Positions 16,251-27,018 of a DNA stretch of 64,000 bases are shown here, in pieces. The stretch is taken from positions 2,112,001 to 2,176,000 of the forward strand of contig OZ242326.1 of the NCBI GenBank assembly GCA_965208325.1, read 5' to 3'. The notes under the pieces were generated by a model, which made no database searches, had not been told where the DNA came from, and saw only the letters and a list, made by a program, of their open reading frames with translations. Position 1 is the stretch's first letter, and each line of letters opens with the position of its first letter. This stretch comes from Candidatus Poribacteria bacterium (GTDB lineage Bacteria > Poribacteria > WGA-4E > PCPOR2b). The position numbers and the translations under genes are program-made.

Positions 16251-18509
16251 ATGAATGTGTTCAGGAGAAAGAGTTTGAGATTTGGTTTGCGATTATGTGC
16301 GTTAGCGTTCGCTGCGCTGGTGTGTATACCCATCGCTCCCGCCGCCGATGAGGAAGATGATGATATCATTATGCTGGAAGAGATAATGGTGACTGCCCGC
16401 AAACGCGAGCAGCGGTCTTTTGAGGTGCCGCTTTCGGTTTCGACGCTGCGGGGCGAAAAAGCCGACACCTTGCGCTCATCCGGACTGGACATACGTTACT
16501 TGTCGAACCGCACACCCAGTTTGCAGATGGAATCCTCGTTTGGGCGCGTATTTCCGCGCTTTTATATCCGCGGTCTAGGAAATACGGACTTTGACCTCAA
16601 CGCGTCGCAGCCGGTTTCTGTCCTTTATGACGGCGTTGTACTTGAAAATGCGCTGTTGAAAGGCTTTCCTGCCTTTGATTTGGATCGGATTGAAGTGCTG
16701 CGGGGACCGCAGGGCACGTTGTTCGGACGCAACACCCCCGCTGGCGCTGTCAAGTTTGAATCGGCGCGCCCCACGCAGGAATTTGAGGGATACGGGCGGT
16801 TTAGTTACGGCCGGCATAGCACTAGTAATTTTGAGGCTGCGGTGTCCGGCGCACTCATCCCATCTGTGCTTTCCACGCGGATTTCACTGCTTGACCAACG
16901 GCGAGATGACTGGATAGATAACGTGCATACGGATGGAGACAACGCTCTAGGCGGGCATCGGGATTTCGCAGGCCGGATACAGTTATTATGGACTCCCACA
17001 CCGGAACTAAAAACGTGGGTCAAGTTTCACCTTCGCGATTTGGACGGCACGGCGCGACTGTTCCGCGCCAATACTTTGGCGCAGGGGCAAGGCGATCTCG
17101 TGGACGATTTCGCCCGCGACCGCATTTCACACGACGGCCGTAATGAGCAAACTCTGAATTCACAAGGTTTAGCAGCGGAAGTCCGCTACAACATGGGGAA
17201 CTTCCAACTGGTTTCACTGACAGGGCTGGAGCGGTTGACCATGTTTGCGCGCGGCGATATTGACGGCGGATACGGCGCCGTTTTCAGTCCGCCGAGCGGC
17301 CCCGGCGAGATTCCTTTTTCATCCGAAACAGCGTCCGGCATTCCCAAACTCCACCAGTTTAGCCAAGAGGTCCGCTTAGTGAGTATAGCACCGTACCGTC
17401 TCGCCTATCAGTTCGGGTTGTATTTTTTCCGCGAGTTTGTGGAGATGGAGGATTTCAACTACAATACCTTAGCAGGCGGAACCGATGATGGTAAGGTGCG
17501 GCAAGAGCAAGAAGTGACTGCGCGGGCGGCATTTGCGGCGATGACATACCAATGGAACAAGGATTTGGAATTGGGCGCCGGTTTGCGATTATCTAATGAT
17601 TCGAAGGACTATACCGCATGGCGAGACACTTCCCCAGCCGTTACGGAGGCAGGTCCCATAGGTCCTATCCACCGGAATCCGCAAGGCACGGTGTGGAGTG
17701 GAGATTTGAGTCTGCGCTACCGGGTCTCGCCCAGCGTGCAGACGTATTTGCGCACAGCACGCGGATTTCGTGCGCCGAGCATTCAGGGACGCCTATTGTT
17801 TGGCAATGAGGTCACGGTAGCGGATACGGAGACGATTCTCTCTTTTGAAGGCGGCACGAAATTACGCCTGTGGGAACAGCGGATGCACCTGAACATGGCT
17901 GCATTCCATTACTTTATGCAAGATCAGCAACTGACTGCAGTTGGCGGAGAGGCTAATTTCAACCGGTTGGTGAATGCTGGCAGCACAATCGGCCGGGGCG
18001 TTGAGGCGGAACTGACCCTTGCACCGATTACAGCGATTGAGGTTAAAGCGGGACTCAGCTACAACCATACACGAATTGATGATCCGCACTTAGCGGTACA
18101 GGGCTGCGGCGCTCCCTGCACTATGTTGGATCCGCCCGGTTCTGTCGACGGAACTTACTCCATAAACGGCAACAGTCTGCCGCAAGCACCGGGTTGGATT
18201 GCAGATGCGGCGCTGCGCTACGCCCTCGCACTTCCAGGCGGTGCGCACCTCATCGCGTCTACGGACTGGGCATACCGCAGCCGCGTACGGTTCTTTCTTT
18301 ACGAATCTGCCGAATTCGGCGACGATTGGCTCTTGGAAGGAGGTCTCCGCCTCGCTTGCCTATTGCCATTCGCCGATATGGAAGTTGCAATCGTGGGGCG
18401 CAACATCCTCAACGACACGTCTCCTACCGGCGGTATTGATTTTAACAATCTGACCAGCTACGTCAATGAAACCCGGTTTTGGGGAATGGAAGTCGTGCGG
18501 CGATTTTGA
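16251..18509 (+). CDS. TonB-dependent receptor
   Basis: Signal peptide, EEIMVTARKRE TonB box, RIEVLRGPQGTLFGRN plug motif, C-terminal F. Confidence 0.92.
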   Translation: MNVFRRKSLRFGLRLCALAFAALVCIPIAPAADEEDDDIIMLEEIMVTARKREQRSFEVPLSVSTLRGEKADTLRSSGLDIRYLSNRTPSLQMESSFGRVFPRFYIRGLGNTDFDLNASQPVSVLYDGVVLENALLKGFPAFDLDRIEVLRGPQGTLFGRNTPAGAVKFESARPTQEFEGYGRFSYGRHSTSNFEAAVSGALIPSVLSTRISLLDQRRDDWIDNVHTDGDNALGGHRDFAGRIQLLWTPTPELKTWVKFHLRDLDGTARLFRANTLAQGQGDLVDDFARDRISHDGRNEQTLNSQGLAAEVRYNMGNFQLVSLTGLERLTMFARGDIDGGYGAVFSPPSGPGEIPFSSETASGIPKLHQFSQEVRLVSIAPYRLAYQFGLYFFREFVEMEDFNYNTLAGGTDDGKVRQEQEVTARAAFAAMTYQWNKDLELGAGLRLSNDSKDYTAWRDTSPAVTEAGPIGPIHRNPQGTVWSGDLSLRYRVSPSVQTYLRTARGFRAPSIQGRLLFGNEVTVADTETILSFEGGTKLRLWEQRMHLNMAAFHYFMQDQQLTAVGGEANFNRLVNAGSTIGRGVEAELTLAPITAIEVKAGLSYNHTRIDDPHLAVQGCGAPCTMLDPPGSVDGTYSINGNSLPQAPGWIADAALRYALALPGGAHLIASTDWAYRSRVRFFLYESAEFGDDWLLEGGLRLACLLPFADMEVAIVGRNILNDTSPTGGIDFNNLTSYVNETRFWGMEVVRRF

Positions 18510-18730
18510 CCAAGGTACAGGCAATCCTTCAACACTGTGATTATTGGGCATGAAACTGAAAATATGACTGGCAAATCTCGTTATAGTCATTTCGGTTCAT
18601 GTTTATGCAAGGAGTGATCAACTGATTGATAATCGAGGCTAGGAAGCCTCTCCCACAAAACAATTGGTAAGCGCATAATTTTTAGTCGTAATGGCTATAG
18701 TACAGCTTTGACAAATTTCTTGGTGGACAA

Positions 18731-19021
18731 ATGAACAAAGATTAAGTTTTGAAGGTACTCCGGGCGCACAAATCGATTCTTACGCAACGCTTTGGCGTAA
18801 CAAACCTCGCCGTATTCGGCTCAGCCGCGCGTGACGAGATGTCCTCCGACAGTGACATTGACATCTTGGTTCGATTCGACCGGCCGGGGACCTCAAAAGC
18901 CTACTTCGGCGTGCAATTTTACTTGGAGGACCTGCTGGGGCATCCAGTCGATCTGGTCACTGACAAGGCGTTGCGGGTTGAGCTACGCCCTCATGTTGAG
19001 CAGGAGGCTATTGATGTGTAG
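18731..19021 (+). pseudogene. Minimal nucleotidyltransferase (MntA-like antitoxin) with a nonsense codon at position 5; no HEPN partner gene follows
   Basis: MNKD*VLKVL...FGSAARD...SDIDILV...VDLVT; TAA at 18743-18745. Translation could restart at TTG 18749. Confidence 0.75.
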
Positions 19022-19144
19022 GTTCGGCGCGAAACCCCACGGCGGACGTTCTTTCTTTTAGAACACAATCGTATTCACGATAGGGAATCTATTTGTAGAT
19101 TAGAAATCAGCATCAAATGAACTTTTTGGTTACCAAATGACATG

Positions 19145-19224
19145 ACGGATAAATCACATTTGCTGCTAACAGATGCGCAACAAATTCGTTTGTTGCGCAC
19201 AAAATGAAAAATATGCACGACAAA
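19145..19224. repeat. Upstream short copy of the Fic-associated palindrome array
   Basis: TTTGCTGCTA-ACAGAT-GCGCAACAAA-TTCG-TTTGTTGCGC-16 nt-GCACGACAAA; same units and spacers as 20637-21504. Confidence 0.85.
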
Positions 19225-19291
19225 ACTCTCTTTTTCACATAGGAATTACGCACTTCAGTGATGAACAACAATCGTTGCTCTCTGCCAAAAG

Positions 19292-19391
19292 GTAGTAGGT
19301 ATACGCCGTATGCCGTAACCCTCGTTCCGATGCTTTCATCTGGTTTCATAGCAATACGTACATGTAACGGCACACGGAGTGTGCCTACTAC
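19292..19391. repeat. REPIN-like inverted pair of GTAG-type REP elements
   Basis: GTAGTAGGTATACGCCGTATGCCGT ... ACGGCACACGGAGTGTGCCTACTAC; the arms are complementary at 21 of 25 positions. Confidence 0.75.
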
Positions 19392-19469
19392 TATGGTTTG
19401 AGCGTTCAACTAAGTAAGTGCTCTACCTAATCACGTTCCACTAAACCAAATATCAATGACAATTTTATA

Positions 19470-20582
19470 ATGCCACCTGTTGATTATCATTACGGCCAAT
19501 TTCCTCCAGAGAATCTAGATTGGCTCCAACTCGTCCCGTATATCGGTCCAGCATCGCGTGCGCTAGGCGATTTCAGGTGGTTACTCAACGCCATACCCAA
19601 TGCCGATGTTCTGCTGGCGCCGTTGTCGGCTCACGAAGCCGTGCTATCCAGCCGAATTGAGGGGACGCAAGTGACTCTGGGGGAAGTTCTGGAATTCGAG
19701 GCTGACAACGGACGTCATCAGCCTCCGGAGCGCCGCCATGAGATTCGGGAGGTGTACAACTATCGTCTCGCCATACACCAAGCCACTGAACTGCTGGAGG
19801 AGCTGCCGCTTTGCGGTCGGCTACTTAAGAAGGTGCATGCCATATTGATGGAGGACGTGCGCGGCAAGCACAGACAATCAGGTGAGTTTAAATCAACGCC
19901 AAACTTCATTGGTCGGCCAGGCTGTACGGTAGAAACCGCCAAATTCCTCCCTTGCACACCGGACAAGCTGCCCGATGGGTTGACCGCGTGGGAAAAGTTT
20001 CTTCACAACGATTATCCAGACCGCCTTGTTCAGCTTGCGGTGGCGCATGCAGAATTTGAAGCGCTCCACCCGTTCTACGACGGTAACGGACGCCTCGGGC
20101 GTATGTTAATGCCTCTTTTTCTTTACGAGCGGGAACTATTGAACTACCCGTCATTTTATATGAGCGAATACCTCGAAGCCCATCGAGAAGAATACTACGA
20201 GCGGCTATTGGCAGTTTCACGTGATGACGACTGGACCGGTTGGTGCCGCTTTTTCCTTCAAGCACTTGAAAAGCAGGCGGAGGAAAACACGCGAAAAGCA
20301 AAAGCTATCCTCAATCTTTACGATGAACGGAAACGTTGGATTATTGAGAATACTCGTTCACAATACGCGGTCCCTTCTTTGGACTTCATTTTCCGCCAAC
20401 CTATTTTCCGGTCACCGGATTTCGGAAAAGATCAAGGGGTACCCCGTCACTCTGCTCGGCGCATTTTGGGTGAGATTCGAAACGAATTGTTTATTGAATG
20501 GTTACCACCATCAGGTTCGCGACCGGCAATCTTCGCCTACAAAGAACTACTTGACATTGTAGAACAGAAACGCACATTTTAG
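19470..20582 (+). CDS. Class II Fic-family AMP-transferase with C-terminal HTH-like region
   Basis: Canonical HPFYDGNGRLGR; N-terminal inhibitory motif SSRIEG; C-terminal FRSPDFGKDQGVPRHSARRILGEI segment resembling an HTH. Confidence 0.9.
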   Translation: MPPVDYHYGQFPPENLDWLQLVPYIGPASRALGDFRWLLNAIPNADVLLAPLSAHEAVLSSRIEGTQVTLGEVLEFEADNGRHQPPERRHEIREVYNYRLAIHQATELLEELPLCGRLLKKVHAILMEDVRGKHRQSGEFKSTPNFIGRPGCTVETAKFLPCTPDKLPDGLTAWEKFLHNDYPDRLVQLAVAHAEFEALHPFYDGNGRLGRMLMPLFLYERELLNYPSFYMSEYLEAHREEYYERLLAVSRDDDWTGWCRFFLQALEKQAEENTRKAKAILNLYDERKRWIIENTRSQYAVPSLDFIFRQPIFRSPDFGKDQGVPRHSARRILGEIRNELFIEWLPPSGSRPAIFAYKELLDIVEQKRTF

Positions 20583-20636
20583 TGGTTTGCATGTGAGTAA
20601 GGTGTGGCACTTGACAATCGCAATACGGATAAAAAC

Positions 20637-21504
20637 GAGCAATGAATCGCTTTGTTGCTAATGAATCGAGAAATACTAGCAACAAATCACTTTGTTACTA
20701 ACAGATGCACAACAAATCCGTTTGTTGCTAACGAATCGAGAAATATTAGCAACAAATCACTTTGTTGCTAACAGATGCACAACAAATCCGTTTGTTGCTA
20801 ACGAATCGAGAAATATTAGCAACAAATCACTTTGTTGCTAACAGACGCACAACAGTTTCGCTTGTCGGACACAAAACGGGAAATATGACCGACAAATGGA
20901 TTTGTTGGTCACAGGTGTCCAACAAATCTGTTTGCCGGACACGAATTGGAAAATATGACCGACAAATTGCGTTACCTGCTTATGTATGAGCAGCATATGC
21001 TTTTTGTTGCTCACAAAACCCAATATATGAGCAACAAATGGATTTGTGGTGCACAGATGCACAACAAATTGGATTGTTGGACACAAATCGGGAAAAATGT
21101 CCTACAATTGTTTATCGGCCACAGATGTCCAACAAATCTGTTTGCCGGACATGAAACGGAAAACATGACCGACAATTCACGTTACCTGCCCATGTATGAG
21201 CAGCAAATCACGTTTGTCGCTCACAAAACCCAATATATGAGCAGCAAATCACTTTGTTGCTAAAAGACGCACAACAGTTTCGCTTGTTGGACAAAAATCG
21301 GGAAATATGTCCGACAAATTAATTTGTCGGTCACAGATGTCCAACAAATCTGTTTGTCGGACACGAATTGGAAAATATGACCGGCAAATTGCGTTACCTG
21401 CTCATGTATGAGTAGCACATCACGTTTGTCGCTCACAAAAGCCAATATTTGAGCAACAAATCACTTTATTACTAACAGATGCACAACAAATTCGTTTGTC
21501 GAAC
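20637..21504. repeat. Non-coding array of about 25 palindromic units with a ~70-bp period and a ~210-bp higher-order repeat
   Basis: Units such as TAGCAACAAA-TCAC-TTTGTTGCTA, separated alternately by ~6-nt (ACAGAT) and ~16-nt (ACGAATCGAGAAATAT) spacers. Confidence 0.93.
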
Positions 21505-21651
21505 AAAAATCGGGAAAAATGTTAAAATATTCCGCTTTTCAACTAACCGCTGACCTCTCTGTCCGATCGATTGATCCTTCGCGCTTCGTTGGGTTGATTA
21601 CTTATCAGGGGGTATCTGAACGCATGTAAATATAATTTTAAATGTATAAAA

Positions 21652-21685
21652 CCACTAGCCACTGACCACTGGTCACTGGCAACTG
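21652..21685. repeat. Degenerate heptamer tandem repeat
   Basis: CCACTAG CCACTGA CCACTGG TCACTGG CAACTG, just upstream of the first WD40 gene. Confidence 0.6.
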
Positions 21686-21709
21686 TTTCTTAATAAGGAG
21701 AGTTTCTTA

Positions 21710-24196
21710 ATGAAAATAACCCTGAAGTTAGTAATCATCTTACTAGCCGTATCTTCAATAACGGCGTCTGCTCAAGAATTCTCGCAATGGAACTTACCGG
21801 AGGGTGCGAAACAACGCCTCGGCAAGGGATGGATACGAGATATTCAGTATTCTCCTACTCGCCCGCATCTCGCGGTTGCAGGTTCAATCGGGATTTGGAT
21901 ATATGACACTACGACCAACCGCGAGATTGATTTGTTGACCGGGCACACGCGAACGGTCAATGCGATAGCGTATTCTCCGGATGGCAACTTGATAGCAAGT
22001 GGGAGCAGCGACGACTCCATCCGGATCTGGGACGCGGTCACTGGCGATGAAATTAGTGCCATCACCGATTTGGACGATACTGTTTGGACTTTGGCTTTTA
22101 GTGAGGATGGCGCAACGCTTGCCAGCGGGAGTAACGATTATTTAATTCGTATTTGGGATGTTAACTCAGGCGAGGAACTTAAAAAGTTGAACGGACATAC
22201 CGATTGGGTAAATAGTGTGGCTTTCAGTCCGACACACAATGTCCTCGCAAGTGGAAGCTGGGATCATACTGTTCGTTTGTGGGATTTGGACACAGGCGAG
22301 GAAATCCGAACCTTCCCCCCGCATTCATCTTTGGTGCGGTCTGTGGCTTTCAGCCCCGATGGGAACATGCTCGCCAGTTCGGATTTTGACGCCGTAATCC
22401 GCTTGTGGGATGTTGAAGCTGGAACAGAAATCAGAACATTCAGGGGCCACACTTCGGATGTTTTCGACATCGCCTTCTCGCTGGACGGCAAGACACTCGC
22501 GAGCGCTAGCGAGGACGACACCATTCGGTTGTGGAATACCGAAACGGGCGAAACCGTCAAGACAATCACCGGACATACGGCTGATGTCTACAGCATTGTA
22601 TACAGTCATGACGGCAAGACGCTAGCCAGCGGCGGATATGACGCTACCATTAAATTTTGGGATGCCGAGACCGGAGACGAGATTAGCAGCATCACAGGGC
22701 ACACGGATCTTGTTTTGAGCGTGGTTTTCACGCCTGACGGCCGCACGCTAGTCGGAAGGAGCTGGGACAAAACCGTGCGCCTCTGGAACACTGAAACGGG
22801 TCAGCTTGATAATGTGCTGATAGGGCATACGGATGATGTAGATGTGGTCGTGTTCAGTCCTGACGGCGGTAAAATTGCGAGCGGCAGCCAAGATGACACC
22901 GTACGTGTATGGAATGCGAACACCGGAGAACTTCTGAGAACGCTGGTTGGACACTGGGCTTACCTGATTAGTTTAGCCTTCAGTCCCGACGGGAGTATAC
23001 TGGCAAGCGGCAGCGAGGACGATGTCGTTCGATTATGGCATACGAACACAGGCCTGCGATTGGATTTTCTTTACGGCCACGCGGCTGGCGTTGAGAGCAT
23101 TGCTTTTCATCCCGATGGGGAGATTCTCGCCAGCGGCAGCCGCGACGACACGATTCGAATATGGGATGTCGCTAGTGGTAGAACACAGATCCGCATTGAG
23201 GAACATGACGGAGATGTACTAAGCGTCGATTTCAATTTTGACGGTTCATTGCTCGCCAGCGGCAGCCAAGACCGAACCATCAGGCTGTGGAATCCTACAA
23301 CGGGCGATGCGATTCGGACACTAAACGGGCACGAGAGCGGCGTCCGAACCCTTAAGTTTAGCCCAGATGGACGCACGATTGCCAGCGGGAGCCGGGATAA
23401 CACCGTTCGTGTGTGGAACGCCGCTACAGGCGAACTTATGAACACGTTTGCCGGACATACGGCTGGTGTTAGGAGCGTTGCTTTCAGCCCTGACGGCAGC
23501 ACAATCGCCAGTGGAGGATGGGACGGCACGGTGTTGATTTGGGACGCGCCGATACTGCCTCCGGAGGTTATCGAAGAGCCGCTGGCCGCGGATTTAGACG
23601 GAGATGGAACAGTCGATATAGCCGACCTCGTGCTGGTCGCTTCAGCCTTTGGCGAATCAGGGGAGAACCTAACAGCCGATGTGAATGGAGACGGGGAAGT
23701 TGACATAGCGGACCTAGTAGCGGTTGCTGGCGCTTTCGGAACGGAGATTGCCGCATCACCGGCTCGTCACGATATTACAGCGGTGCTGAACGAAGCGGAC
23801 GTTAGGGAGTGGCTTTTGCAAGCTCAGCAGTTAGGGCTAACTGATTCGAATTCGCAGAGAGGCATTCTCTTCTTGGAACAACTCCTCTTAGCGTTCCGAC
23901 CATCCGAAACAGCGTTGTTGGCGAACTATCCAAATCCGTTCAATCCGGAAACATGGATTCCGTATCACCTTGCCGAAGACGCCGATGTGCAGGTTACAAT
24001 TTATGACACGAACGGCAAGTTAGTCAGGCGAATAGATTTGGGAGTTCAACCTGCGGGCTACTACACCGAACAACGCCTTGCAGCATATTGGGATGGCCAT
24101 AATCAGCGGGGCGAGGCCGTAGCAAGCGGTGTGTATTTCTATACCTTGTCCACCGCGGGTTATGTGGAAACGAGGAAAATGACGATACAGAAATAG
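21710..24196 (+). CDS. Secreted WD40 protein (about 14 repeats) with dockerin-like EF-hand pair and C-terminal FlgD-Ig/T9SS-like domain
   Basis: Signal peptide; GH...FSPDG...WD repeats; DLDGDGTVDIAD and DVNGDGEVDIAD; LLANYPNPFNPETW...SGVYFY...RKM. Confidence 0.92.
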   Translation: MKITLKLVIILLAVSSITASAQEFSQWNLPEGAKQRLGKGWIRDIQYSPTRPHLAVAGSIGIWIYDTTTNREIDLLTGHTRTVNAIAYSPDGNLIASGSSDDSIRIWDAVTGDEISAITDLDDTVWTLAFSEDGATLASGSNDYLIRIWDVNSGEELKKLNGHTDWVNSVAFSPTHNVLASGSWDHTVRLWDLDTGEEIRTFPPHSSLVRSVAFSPDGNMLASSDFDAVIRLWDVEAGTEIRTFRGHTSDVFDIAFSLDGKTLASASEDDTIRLWNTETGETVKTITGHTADVYSIVYSHDGKTLASGGYDATIKFWDAETGDEISSITGHTDLVLSVVFTPDGRTLVGRSWDKTVRLWNTETGQLDNVLIGHTDDVDVVVFSPDGGKIASGSQDDTVRVWNANTGELLRTLVGHWAYLISLAFSPDGSILASGSEDDVVRLWHTNTGLRLDFLYGHAAGVESIAFHPDGEILASGSRDDTIRIWDVASGRTQIRIEEHDGDVLSVDFNFDGSLLASGSQDRTIRLWNPTTGDAIRTLNGHESGVRTLKFSPDGRTIASGSRDNTVRVWNAATGELMNTFAGHTAGVRSVAFSPDGSTIASGGWDGTVLIWDAPILPPEVIEEPLAADLDGDGTVDIADLVLVASAFGESGENLTADVNGDGEVDIADLVAVAGAFGTEIAASPARHDITAVLNEADVREWLLQAQQLGLTDSNSQRGILFLEQLLLAFRPSETALLANYPNPFNPETWIPYHLAEDADVQVTIYDTNGKLVRRIDLGVQPAGYYTEQRLAAYWDGHNQRGEAVASGVYFYTLSTAGYVETRKMTIQK

Positions 24197-24264
24197 GCTT
24201 AAGTATGCAAACCCTTACACGCAAATGTACGCAACACACGATACCATTTATGGAGAATTCTAGT

Positions 24265-27018
24265 ATGAAAATAGTTTCGACGATATTTTTCCTTTTCTTT
24301 GCAATTTCACTGCACTGCCTTGCACAAGACCCTTCACAGTGGGATTTGCCCGAAGACGCCAGAGAGCGCGTCGGCAAAGGTTGGATTACGGAAATTCAGT
24401 ATTCGCCGGATGGCTCTCGTCTAGCGGTAGCGAGCTCTATCGGCATTTGGATTTACGATACCGAGACGCTTAAAGAGGTTTCGTTGCTCTCCGCGCACAC
24501 GGAGGAGGTCACCGCACTGGCATATTCCATTGATGGGAGTATACTCGCCAGCGGGAGTTGGGATAGGACCATACGGTTGTGGGATCCTGAAACTGGCGAG
24601 GTGCTGCAAACCCTCGAAGGGCATTGGAGTGGAATTCGCAGCATAGACATTAACTCTGATGTGACCACGCTTGTCAGCGCGAGTTACGACCGGACGGTTC
24701 GGCTTTGGGATATTGAGACGGGCGATGAGATTCGGATTCTCTGGGGGCATCGAGACCGTGTCAATACTGTGGCATTCAGTCCGGATGGCACTAAGATCGC
24801 CACCGGGAGTTGGGACCAAACGGCGCGTTTGTGGGATGCCGCCACAGGAGACCAACTCCAAATCATCACTGCGCACAGGTCGCTGGTTCAAGCGGTAGCG
24901 TTCAGTCCAGACGGGGAGACGCTTGCCACGGGAGATTACAACGGTGAGATTCACCTCTGGGACATTGCGACAGAGACACAGACTGCGGTTCTCACTGATC
25001 ATACATCCCTTATCTTTGACCTCGCCTTTTCTCCGCTAGACAGCGGCACACTGGCAAGTGTAAGTGAAGACGACACTATCCGCCTGTGGGACACGGAGGC
25101 AGGTACGCTCAAGAAGACGATTACCGAGCATACCGCCGATGTGATTAGAGTTGTTTTTAGTCCTGACGGCGGTACAATCGCCAGCGGCGCTTGGGATGCG
25201 ACTGTTCGTTTTTGGGACGCGGAGACAGGTTCACACCTAAATACAATAACCGGACATGCGGATGTTGTTTTGAGCGTTAGTTTCAGACCGGACGGTCGTG
25301 CGCTTGTTGGGCGAAGTTGGGACTCTACAATTCGGATATGGAACACGGAAACGGGAAAACTCGATCATGTCTTGTTTGGGCATACGGACGATGTAGGTAT
25401 TGTGGTCTTCAGTCCGGATGGGCGCACACTGGCTAGCGGCAGCGAAGACCACACAGTCCGTTTATGGGACGTTGAAACCGGGGCGCACTTGAAAACTCTC
25501 GTCGGGCACAGAGCTTATCTAATTACCCTCGCATTCAACGCCGATGGAACCATGCTTGCCAGCGGCAGCGAAGATGATGATATCCGCTTGTGGGATGTAG
25601 CATCCGGAGCGCGGCTGCGAACACTCATCGGACATACGACAGGGGTGGAGGGACTAGCTTTTAGCCCCGATGGCCGCACGCTCGCGAGCGCAAGCCGAGA
25701 CAATTCTGTCCGTTTATGGGATGTCGAAAACGGCAAGGAATTGCACAAACTTCTGGGACATCGCGGTGATGCGATTACCGTTGCTTTCAGTCCTGACGGA
25801 AACACGGTGGCGAGCGGCGGTTGGGACGCTGTCATCCGTTTGTGGGACGTTTCGACCGGCGAGTTGCGGGAATCCGTCGAGTCGTTTCACACCGGCATTA
25901 AGAGCATAACGTACAGTCCGGATGGTGAGAAGATTGCGACCGGAAGTTGGGATAATACTGTACGCCTTTGGGATACTAAAACGCTTGCACGTATCAAGAC
26001 CTTGCATGGACACAAGTCGTTCGTCTATAGCGTCGCATTCAATGGGGACGGCAGCGTAATTGGCAGCGGCGGGGTTGATGGTACGTTATTGCTGTGGGAG
26101 ACGCCGCCGTTACCCCCAATCTACGTCAAGACGCTAGCACAGGGATTGAACATGATTTCCCTGCCGCTAATGCCAGAAGACCCGATTTCTGCCCGTGCAC
26201 TCGCTCAGATGGCGAATGCCACCGCTGTTATTCGATTCGATAGGGAGACTCAGGGCTTCATAGCATTCACGGATGATGAGCGCGGGTCGGGCTTCCCGAT
26301 TGAAGGCGGCGAGGCTTATATCGTCAACACGCCGGATGGCGGTTCAGTGGCATTCTCCGGTGAGGCGTGGGAGAACGAACCCGCTGCAGCACCGCCGGTC
26401 AGTCCTTTTAGAGAAGCTTGGGCATTCATCGTGGCTAGCGATTTGAAAAATGCCGTGGCTGATACCAACTATACGGTAATTGCCGAGAATCTGCGTACCG
26501 GTGTTGTTGTAACTGACGAAATCGCCCCGAACAAAACACGTGTTGCTGCTGTTTGGGCCGATCTCAATCGGAATAGTGTGGTGCGAGCAGGTGATAAGCT
26601 GGACATCACAGTGATTGATGACGGAGGGAACACTGTTTCTGGCCCGCACCGCTACACGGTCGACGTTGCCGACATCCGCAAAGCTTACATTCGCCTGCCG
26701 CTAGTTGTTGGTGACATACGTCCGGTGCAGACGCTGCTCGCGCAGAATTTTCCCAATCCGTTCAACCCAGAGACGTGGCTGCCCTTCCAGCTTAGTCAAC
26801 CTGGCCTTGCCGCCATACAGATATACGATGCGTCTGGGCGCCTCATAAGGACACTTGACCTTGGCGCAAAACCGGCGGGATACTACATGACACGATCCAA
26901 AGCTGCATATTGGGATGGCCGCAACAGTTCCGGTGAACGTGTTGCCTCCGGCAGCTATTTCTACACGCTTGAGACGGACGAATTTTCCGCGACGCGTAAG
27001 ATGTTGATAGCTAAATAG
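24265..27018 (+). CDS. Secreted WD40 protein (about 14 repeats), paralog of the upstream gene, with C-terminal FlgD-Ig/T9SS-like domain
   Basis: Start ATG 24265 after GGAG; repeats colinear with the upstream gene; LAQNFPNPFNPETW...SGSYFY...RKM. Confidence 0.92.
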   Translation: MKIVSTIFFLFFAISLHCLAQDPSQWDLPEDARERVGKGWITEIQYSPDGSRLAVASSIGIWIYDTETLKEVSLLSAHTEEVTALAYSIDGSILASGSWDRTIRLWDPETGEVLQTLEGHWSGIRSIDINSDVTTLVSASYDRTVRLWDIETGDEIRILWGHRDRVNTVAFSPDGTKIATGSWDQTARLWDAATGDQLQIITAHRSLVQAVAFSPDGETLATGDYNGEIHLWDIATETQTAVLTDHTSLIFDLAFSPLDSGTLASVSEDDTIRLWDTEAGTLKKTITEHTADVIRVVFSPDGGTIASGAWDATVRFWDAETGSHLNTITGHADVVLSVSFRPDGRALVGRSWDSTIRIWNTETGKLDHVLFGHTDDVGIVVFSPDGRTLASGSEDHTVRLWDVETGAHLKTLVGHRAYLITLAFNADGTMLASGSEDDDIRLWDVASGARLRTLIGHTTGVEGLAFSPDGRTLASASRDNSVRLWDVENGKELHKLLGHRGDAITVAFSPDGNTVASGGWDAVIRLWDVSTGELRESVESFHTGIKSITYSPDGEKIATGSWDNTVRLWDTKTLARIKTLHGHKSFVYSVAFNGDGSVIGSGGVDGTLLLWETPPLPPIYVKTLAQGLNMISLPLMPEDPISARALAQMANATAVIRFDRETQGFIAFTDDERGSGFPIEGGEAYIVNTPDGGSVAFSGEAWENEPAAAPPVSPFREAWAFIVASDLKNAVADTNYTVIAENLRTGVVVTDEIAPNKTRVAAVWADLNRNSVVRAGDKLDITVIDDGGNTVSGPHRYTVDVADIRKAYIRLPLVVGDIRPVQTLLAQNFPNPFNPETWLPFQLSQPGLAAIQIYDASGRLIRTLDLGAKPAGYYMTRSKAAYWDGRNSSGERVASGSYFYTLETDEFSATRKMLIAK

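Follow-up and report, generated by a model that had tools for sequence, protein, structure and literature searches.

The 64-kb stretch of DNA analyzed here (the window) is part of the 4.7-Mb genome of a sponge-associated bacterium, Candidatus Poribacteria bacterium, and harbors an intact gene for a class II Fic enzyme that is followed by an array of 47 short half-sites in alternating orientation. The palindromes formed by these half-sites are linked to this family of Fic genes, and the linkage is real. Comparison with homologous loci indicates that the array is an amplified form of a widespread module of ~91 nt with six half-sites, or arms. The palindromes are probably composed of cognate half-sites of the C-terminal winged helix of the Fic protein, as suggested by features of the sequences and by analogy with DNA-binding relatives.

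The Fic protein belongs to the class II, SoFic-like group of Fic enzymes with a winged helix-turn-helix (wHTH) domain, and all sequence and fold features examined agree with this assignment. The translation contains the active-site motif HPFYDGNGRLGR, which conforms to HxFx(D/E)GNGRxxR, and the inhibitory-helix motif SSRIEG at residues 60-65, N-terminal of the Fic core in the same polypeptide; the class II inhibitory motif is defined as (S/T)xxxE(G/N). Pfam detects Fic_N (E 4.5e-21) and Fic (E 8.4e-19) in the open reading frame (ORF). An AlphaFold2 model based on 47 homologs (predicted local distance difference test score 91.3) places a predicted winged helix at the C-terminus, consisting of helices at residues 300-309 and 326-340 and a wing or hairpin at 342-356, with residues 326-340 as the predicted recognition helix. 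The nearest solved protein is SoFic (3eqx, E 2e-38), on which the model superposes over its full length with a template modeling (TM) score of 0.83 and 27% identity in the structural alignment. Translation, Pfam, and the modeled winged helix confirm the original prediction, made from the letters of this stretch, of an intact class II Fic with SSRIEG and an HTH-like tail.

The array begins ~50 nt 3' of the Fic gene and is ~0.9 kb long (Table 1). Tandem Repeats Finder delimits it at 20631-21522 with a period of 70 and 11.9 copies, plus a super-period of 212 bp. The arm is 11 nt long with the consensus TGanCgaCAAa, in which T1, G2, C5, C8, A9, and A10 are near-invariant and the remaining positions vary. 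A count in register yields 47 arms in 20640-21525; all six invariant bases are retained in 30 arms, five in 10, and four in 7. The start-to-start steps of 15/15/15/25 nt set the palindrome centers 30 and 40 bp apart, and the 70-bp unit reads X-4-X'-4(CAGA)-X-4-X'-14 nt, where X and X' are the two orientations of the arm and the 14-nt spacer is A-rich on the + strand. The youngest part (20651-20854) comprises 2.9 copies, seen as three near-identical units that are 97% alike and therefore recent, and the older part (20813-21522) consists of ~3.4 super-units of 212 bp. The original prediction of a palindrome array after Fic is thus borne out, with ~23-24 palindromes at the two regular distances. 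The same holds for the copy that it described upstream of the gene: a partial module lies ~250 nt before the Fic start, while the main module lies 3' of the stop. Its five arms, counted in 19120-19235, start at ~19143, 19159, 19174, 19189, and 19214 in the order X, X', X, X', 14-nt spacer, X, which is identical to the array in order and spacing, and blastn aligns the array to 19151-19214 at 84%.

Table 1. Positions of the Fic gene, the half-site arrays, and neighboring or related features (window coordinates unless a genome coordinate is given)
Feature	Position	Strand	Basis or remark
Class II Fic gene, intact	19470..20582	+	370 aa; translation, Pfam, AlphaFold2, SoFic match
Amplified array	20651..21522	+	47 alternating half-sites; repeat finder, arm scan, partial contig support
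Upstream partial module, 5 half-sites	19143..19224	+	Arm scan; blastn of array
Canonical stop-abutting arms (X'0, X1, X'1, X2), degenerate here	20578..20650	+	Offsets from 80 homolog loci
Dispersed hairpin repeat, MITE-like (miniature inverted-repeat transposable element), between upstream module and Fic start	19288..19422	+	Genome matches; fold
MNT-type nucleotidyltransferase gene	18749..19021	+	Pfam NTP_transf_2; synteny
Second Fic-wHTH paralog, own genome	G000:C1:2843858-2845063		35% identity to window Fic

The palindromes are confined to this locus in the genome. With at most one mismatch, ACAAA-N4-TTTGT matches the window 18 times, as compared with 3.15 +/- 1.79 times in shuffled sequence (0 of 100 shuffles reach 18), and 16 of the 18 matches fall in 19180-21499. 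Exact matches number 13 in the 4.7 Mb of the genome, 11 of them at the Fic locus, and blastn of the array against its own genome hits nothing besides the array and the upstream unit. The earlier statement that the motif occurs nowhere else in the 64 kb therefore stands up well and extends to the genome. Contigs from other assemblies support the array in part. One sponge-metagenome contig from a different study (run X5) covers 20816-21800 with 2 differences, and another from this run covers 19369-20727, spanning the Fic-array junction. Because these short-read contigs end at 20727 and 20816, the copy number of the near-identical 70-bp units is a single-assembly count.

The same half-sites accompany homologs of this Fic gene in other bacteria. 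The homolog set comprises 327 relatives from 185,579 species genomes, of which the best 80, with 52-58% identity and from at least 10 phyla, were analyzed. Relative to the stop codon, the arm starts fall at constant positions, namely -4(-), +11(+), +26(-), +51/52(+), +66/67(-), and +81/82(+), and are present at these six offsets in 38, 11, 35, 35, 20, and 28 of the 80 loci, respectively. The spacing of 15/15/25/15/15 equals that of the window unit, and the first arm includes the Fic stop codon itself (TTTGA...). At least two arms are found within 200 nt downstream in 63 loci and upstream in 17, and a typical module spans 91 nt with 4-6 arms. Candidate carriers in culture are Tepidimonas charontis (L060), Thermomonas alba (L057), and Ancylobacter tetraedralis (L065). 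A motif-free, ungapped stack anchored on the stop codon reveals conserved non-coding positions, such as +6 A (61/80) and +29 G (58/80). Arm density is 17.7/kb downstream as opposed to 0.47/kb in the gene and 0.78/kb elsewhere, a contrast that is partly circular because the arm model was trained on the flanks that it scored; the positional regularity is not circular. The question raised with the original prediction, whether similar palindromes flank homologs of this Fic, is thus answered by identical half-sites at fixed distances from the stop codon.

Amplified versions of the module also exist elsewhere. One homolog locus (L051) has 16 arms over 630 nt, two others (L101 and L105) have 13, a fourth (L080) has at least 11 with a 70-bp period, and an array likewise accompanies the second Fic gene (contig C21) of a genome from another genus (G053). 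The window array is the largest among the loci examined. The original prediction knew of no described system with this layout. A full-text literature search found no description of the module, but the layout is not unique to the window, whose array is an amplified version of a ~91-nt module that is widespread.

Scans with DNA patterns test the linkage from the opposite direction. A generic three-arm pattern, run on four complete genomes from other phyla, matched 25 times. Every match belongs to the Fic locus (24 within ~630 nt of the Fic gene and one 2.6 kb away), and the reversed pattern, used as a control, gave 0 matches in the same genomes. In a fifth complete genome, where Fic lacks the module, the generic pattern has no match. 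Scatter over unrelated loci is therefore not seen in the own genome or in the four complete genomes, in agreement with the claim that the palindromes are tied to Fic. When metagenomes were scanned with the DNA pattern only, a Fic homolog (42-47% identity) adjoined the match in 13 among the at least 79 loci listed; the remaining loci are mostly single chance matches. One of the contigs retrieved (L172, 1250-2350) carries an unrelated array of tandem repeats with a period of 84 bp and a 28-nt sub-repeat containing GTTAACAAAG; it has no Fic gene nearby and is a chance match to the pattern.

Genes around the homologs are diverse. The upstream neighbors (n = 76) include 14 DNA methylases, 4 HsdS, and 6 TonB-like proteins, others with roles in restriction or defense, and a rest of housekeeping and diverse genes; many Fic homologs sit in restriction-modification operons. 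As the neighbors vary, Fic is the only constant partner of the module. Judged by a crude rule for ORFs, 28 of the 80 loci have their next downstream ORF on the opposite strand (one locus has no qualifying ORF), and an operator role for the downstream gene is therefore not general. The same diversity speaks to the alternative that the sites belong to a downstream gene or to some other DNA-binding protein, with Fic as a frequent neighbor. In two families a unit lies ~70-100 nt upstream of the same N6_N4 DNA methylase without Fic (genomes G001, G003, G035, and G061, introduced below), and the abundance of Fic homologs in restriction-modification operons would fit such a reader. This alternative is nevertheless very improbable, with downstream and upstream genes that vary widely, with no protein besides Fic constant, and with the methylase gene missing both from this window and from a sister species (G002) that keep the array.

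Whether the repeats act as DNA or as RNA is reflected in the mismatches between arms. Adjacent inverted arms across the homolog loci are 66-86% complementary, and non-wobble mismatches outnumber wobble-compatible ones in five of five adjacent arm pairs (for example, 41 versus 12). The margin is narrow in the core arm pair (24 versus 22), which displays no strand bias (10 versus 12). The best-matched pair, at 86% complementarity, consists of the tail-to-tail arms across the 14-nt A/T-rich spacer, and this pair is taken to be the core site. Within one locus, the variable positions are occupied by the same bases in every arm, direct or inverted alike. In these respects the arms behave as repeated protein half-sites, unlike conserved RNA helices.

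The original prediction had offered a structured repeat RNA, comparable to a type III antitoxin, as its own alternative; in this form the array would act as a structured 3' untranslated region or a repeat RNA that binds or neutralizes Fic. In its favor, a module that begins at the stop codon would be transcribed together with Fic, the spacers differ between the strands (CAGA and A-rich 14-mers on the + strand), and any palindrome array folds well. Against these points stand the incomplete complementarity with its prevailing non-wobble mismatches and lack of strand bias, as well as the single arm sequence per locus in both orientations, and the RNA alternative is disfavored to the point of being highly unlikely. 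In an Rfam scan of 18000-22500 nothing came near threshold; the output consisted of 5 weak matches of microRNA or snoRNA type, all with E >= 0.12 and far below the gathering scores. Scans of 18600-21800 returned one promoter-like site, on the minus strand, as compared with 4.5 expected, with none on the + strand, and 4 terminator-like sites as compared with 3.3 expected; by eye, the X'-14-X core lacks sigma-70 spacing. ToxIN-like type III toxin-antitoxin systems do resemble the locus in having a tandem repeat array beside a toxin-like gene. In known systems of this type, the antitoxin repeats precede the toxin gene and act as RNA that is cut by the toxin, an endoribonuclease; here the repeats follow Fic, which is not an endoribonuclease.

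The winged helix of the Fic protein is favored as the reader of the sites because of the family-wide linkage, the arms that resemble protein half-sites, the wHTH fold, and the precedent of CccR, SoFic, and CbFic2. The half-site of a paralogous Fic subfamily (33-38% identity) is a different one, CG(T/C)TAATAA, and is arranged similarly upstream of the gene of that subfamily. This arrangement, which includes a tail-to-tail pair with a 12-14-nt spacer, was found in the own genome as well as in 12 of 19 relatives (loci L014-L032). In the own genome, the palindrome CG(T/C)TAATAA-N9-TTATTA(A/G)CG occurs twice, 100-200 nt upstream of the start of the paralog. The half-site therefore changes with the Fic subfamily. 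At the level of single residues, the Arg of a TA-x-R motif (R330 in the window protein) was compared with G6 of the arm; 29 loci have both, 8 have the Arg only, 6 have neither, and one has G6 only.

The closest precedents are three Fic proteins with DNA-binding domains. CccR of Yersinia pseudotuberculosis binds as a dimer to AGATAATCAT-N26-ATGATAATCT at its own promoter and represses it; the inverted repeats are 10 bp long, the regulatory and AMPylation activities are separable, and the protein is a secreted effector of the type VI secretion system (PMC9755527). The window protein shares with CccR the class II-type Fic domain with a C-terminal HTH (7xux, Foldseek E 1e-9) and inverted repeats that are specific to its own locus. 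The CccR operator comprises a pair of half-sites in the promoter with 26 bp between them, whereas here six half-sites of 11 nt start from the stop codon and are amplified to 47. The half-site sequences differ, and nothing suggests secretion for the window protein. Dimeric SoFic of Shewanella oneidensis is described in a preprint as binding sequence-specifically within 100 bp upstream of its own start, and as AMPylating EF-Tu in a dimer-dependent manner (10.64898/2026.07.09.737422). SoFic is the closest solved structure, with the same Fic_N/Fic/wHTH build; its reported binding lies upstream of its own gene, and no exact site is reported for it. In CbFic2, DNA binding drives dimerization and switches the enzyme from AMPylation to deAMPylation, and the binding reported is largely non-specific (PMC10628234). 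CbFic2, a class II Fic with a wHTH domain, provides a precedent for the control of enzyme state by DNA; it is a distant relative (8cil, TM ~0.6), and no cognate repeats are described at its own gene. As judged by sequence and analogy, the system would resemble the CccR and SoFic autoregulators and differ from them in the position, number, and geometry of the sites and in the half-site sequence. Regularly spaced arrays of sites that hold many copies of a protein include plasmid iterons, parC/ParR centromeres, and datA for DnaA; these are not known to involve a Fic-like enzyme, and a role in replication or partition has no support here.

Several observations weigh against the winged helix of Fic as the reader and against a lasting functional bond between Fic and the array. 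A column-by-column covariation scan of protein residues and variable arm positions gave associations scattered over the whole protein, a phylogenetic signal, and it did not single out the recognition helix; no more than 3 independent changes on the tree underlie the association of Arg with G6. Binding of the half-sites by Fic, for the window protein as for its subfamily, is something that we infer from sequence. A site 3' of the gene is an odd position for an autorepressor, and ~10 of the 80 homolog loci lack a recognizable module. In the window itself, the arms expected directly after the Fic stop codon are degenerate in the arm scan, and between the upstream unit and the Fic start lies a hairpin repeat that matches at least 50 other places in the genome. 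The three sister species (G001, G002, and G003) retain, at the same site, arrays of 13-15 arms that have no Fic gene next to them, and no Fic gene of any kind is detectable in G002. The share of intact arms in these species is 0.46-0.71, as compared with 0.64 here, so that decay is not visible. Arrays kept with no Fic gene next to them indicate that the array persists independently of the Fic gene. The pattern recurs in a second genus, in which one genome (G054) has Fic and the module and its sister (G053) has the module alone at that site. In another family, G035 and G061 carry a unit of 3-4 arms upstream of a DNA methylase without a cognate Fic.

When compared with G002, whose flanks are 91% identical, the window has an extra 2.1 kb (19212-21313) consisting of Fic and ~660 nt of array, with repeat units at its bounds. 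The G053 genome, which has the module alone at the shared site, carries its other Fic with an array elsewhere. Sponge metagenomes from two other studies (runs X5 and X6; window 19119-21165) contain contigs with Fic as well as contigs that skip Fic, and the joints of the latter fall between repeat units; relatives or alleles without Fic therefore co-occur with the Fic-bearing form.

Two genus pairs show Fic as one piece, present or absent, next to a module that is retained, and this keeps alive the idea that the palindromes are recombination sites of the dif or attC kind, read by a recombinase and serving as boundaries or as a landing pad of a mobile Fic cassette. Further traces are compatible with it. 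In type I restriction-modification operons (L056, L058, and L088), Fic and the module are followed by a second copy of the 3' end of hsdM, and in Bryobacterales (L095 and L123) a full Fic gene is followed by a second Fic C-terminal fragment; the duplicated hsdM ends and Fic fragments look like traces of cassette replacement by recombination. The methylase together with its upstream unit appears by eye to be near-identical between two families, and the 10-6-10 arm geometry presumably resembles that of Xer or integron core sites. Such a role is improbable all the same. No recombinase domain was found among ORFs of at least 150 aa at 7.8-34 kb of the window (~10 kb around the locus; the whole genome was not searched). 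The position of the module is fixed relative to the Fic stop codon, which it overlaps, and the module is therefore taken as part of the gene and not as an independent element. Fic is the only constant neighbor, the 6-47 arms go far beyond the needs of a recombinase core site, and the separate half-site of the paralogous subfamily fits a reader encoded by the gene.

A more serious alternative accepts that the arms are or were Fic sites and regards the 0.9-kb array as functionless, a satellite-like by-product of slippage or unequal crossing-over with a copy number that drifts. This account is less probable than not but deserves attention. It is consistent with the 47 arms here as compared with 13-15 in close relatives, with the recent origin of the three 97% identical units, and with arrays that persist without Fic and Fic-less joints in metagenomes. 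Mutational bias could also explain the recurrence of amplification at L051, L101/L105, L080, and the G053 contig C21. On the other hand, amplification was independent in at least five lineages and always involved the whole 70-bp unit, which would also fit selection, and the retention of invariant bases, with 30 of the 47 arms fully intact, fits selection equally. The expansion may have been selected as a sink or store, or it may come from a mutational bias that affects palindromic repeats; the sequence does not discriminate between the two.

With the Fic winged helix as the reader, the following mechanism can be proposed. The ancestral unit would consist of the Fic gene and a ~91-nt module of six alternating half-sites that starts inside the stop codon, with a core formed by a tail-to-tail pair around a 14-nt A/T-rich spacer and, on either side of this core, pairs with 4-6-nt gaps. 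In some lineages a similar module lies upstream, replacing or joining the downstream one. Fic dimers may dock on the core pair and further dimers on the flanking pairs, giving rise to a nucleoprotein complex at the own gene. By analogy with CccR, this complex would feed back on transcription, and it would probably also set the dimer state and hence the balance of AMPylation and deAMPylation, as in CbFic2 and SoFic. In the window lineage, unequal recombination or slippage could have amplified the 70-bp unit to ~47 half-sites, which would raise the local binding capacity ~eightfold over the canonical module. A role of the array as a titration sink, a store, or a scaffold for Fic, or as a DNA antitoxin or sensor, is speculative, and array-controlled function as a whole is a hypothesis proposed from sequence alone. 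One further extension, which seems a long shot, views the array as a DNA-encoded regulator. Fic dimers would be stored on the 3' array in a deAMPylating or inactive state, and enzyme released by loss, cutting, or unwinding of the DNA or by competition, as in the loss of an island or, where restriction-modification genes are the context, an attack by phage, would arrest growth by AMPylating a core target, for example EF-Tu. The system would then act as an addiction or abortive-infection switch in which a DNA repeat takes the place of the antitoxin.

Several known kinds of repeat were considered and set aside. The locus is not a type III toxin-antitoxin system, a CRISPR (clustered regularly interspaced short palindromic repeats) array, a set of dispersed palindromes of the REP or BIME type (repetitive extragenic palindromes or bacterial interspersed mosaic elements), or an integron array, because the defining features are absent. 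For type III systems, the repeats lie on the wrong side of the gene, the RNA structure is lacking, and no Rfam family matches. Integron attC or Xer-dif cassettes would call for the recombinase that the ORFs around the locus lack, and the gene flanked here is always Fic. REP or BIME palindromes are dispersed, and these occur at one locus in 4.7 Mb. In a CRISPR array the spacers differ; here CAGA and a conserved 14-mer recur as the spacers, and the entire 70-bp unit is repeated. A replication origin or terminus at the locus (2.13 Mb) does not agree with the cumulative GC skew, which is noisy and reaches its extremes at 3.1 and 4.6 Mb. GGA motifs in the 14-nt spacers suggested a CsrA sponge, an idea that was dropped because by eye G001 and G003 do not retain these motifs.

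Fic-wHTH enzymes are common in bacteria, and to our knowledge a cognate DNA site has been defined only for the two half-sites of CccR. The module provides a predicted DNA partner for a whole subfamily that is precise, conserved, and multi-site, with consensus, spacing, and overlap with the stop codon specified. This subfamily spans many phyla, often resides inside restriction-modification operons, and includes natural amplified versions. Relatives bind DNA, and their activity is switched by dimerization or DNA binding, as three reports describe (PMC9755527, PMC10628234, 10.64898/2026.07.09.737422). A concrete DNA ligand makes DNA-controlled AMPylation directly testable with defined oligonucleotides, and the natural series of 6, 13-16, and 47 half-sites is suited to a test of dose effects.

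Other features of the locus and its relatives accompany the Fic-array system. The hairpin repeat between the upstream module and Fic is ~135 nt long, folds with -47.3 kcal/mol (z = -4.97), and has some copies that are regularly spaced in groups elsewhere in the genome, for example at ~4.014-4.016 Mb and 4.248 Mb; it is separate from the palindrome system. Among plasmids, the best match is a Fic from a Novosphingobium plasmid with 52% identity, which by eye has degenerate arms upstream and none downstream.

In each of the four species of the genus, the left neighbor of the array is the MNT gene. The original prediction described the other toxin-antitoxin modules in the window as broken; this is correct for the MNT module, in which the MNT gene itself is intact and HepT has shrunk to a short N-terminal remnant (~19040-19085) that contains an in-frame stop, and the check was confined to that pair. 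In G061 (locus L038), the order is MNT-HepT, a 122-aa ORF without a Pfam family, one palindrome unit, and a DNA methylase. This methylase, an N6_N4 protein of 1059 aa with a palindrome unit upstream, is found at 5145-8321 of L033 (G001) and from ~1600 in L037 and L038 (G035 and G061). The first ~200 nt of its gene look by eye to be ~90% identical between the two families of the phylum, which suggests that the methylase and the unit were transferred horizontally and recently. Downstream of the array, two large tandem WD40-repeat proteins (828 and 937 aa) are encoded at 21710-27018 of the window, the first with an N-terminus resembling a signal peptide and a C-terminal extension. The four species of the genus all conserve these WD40-repeat genes 3' of the array or of the methylase.

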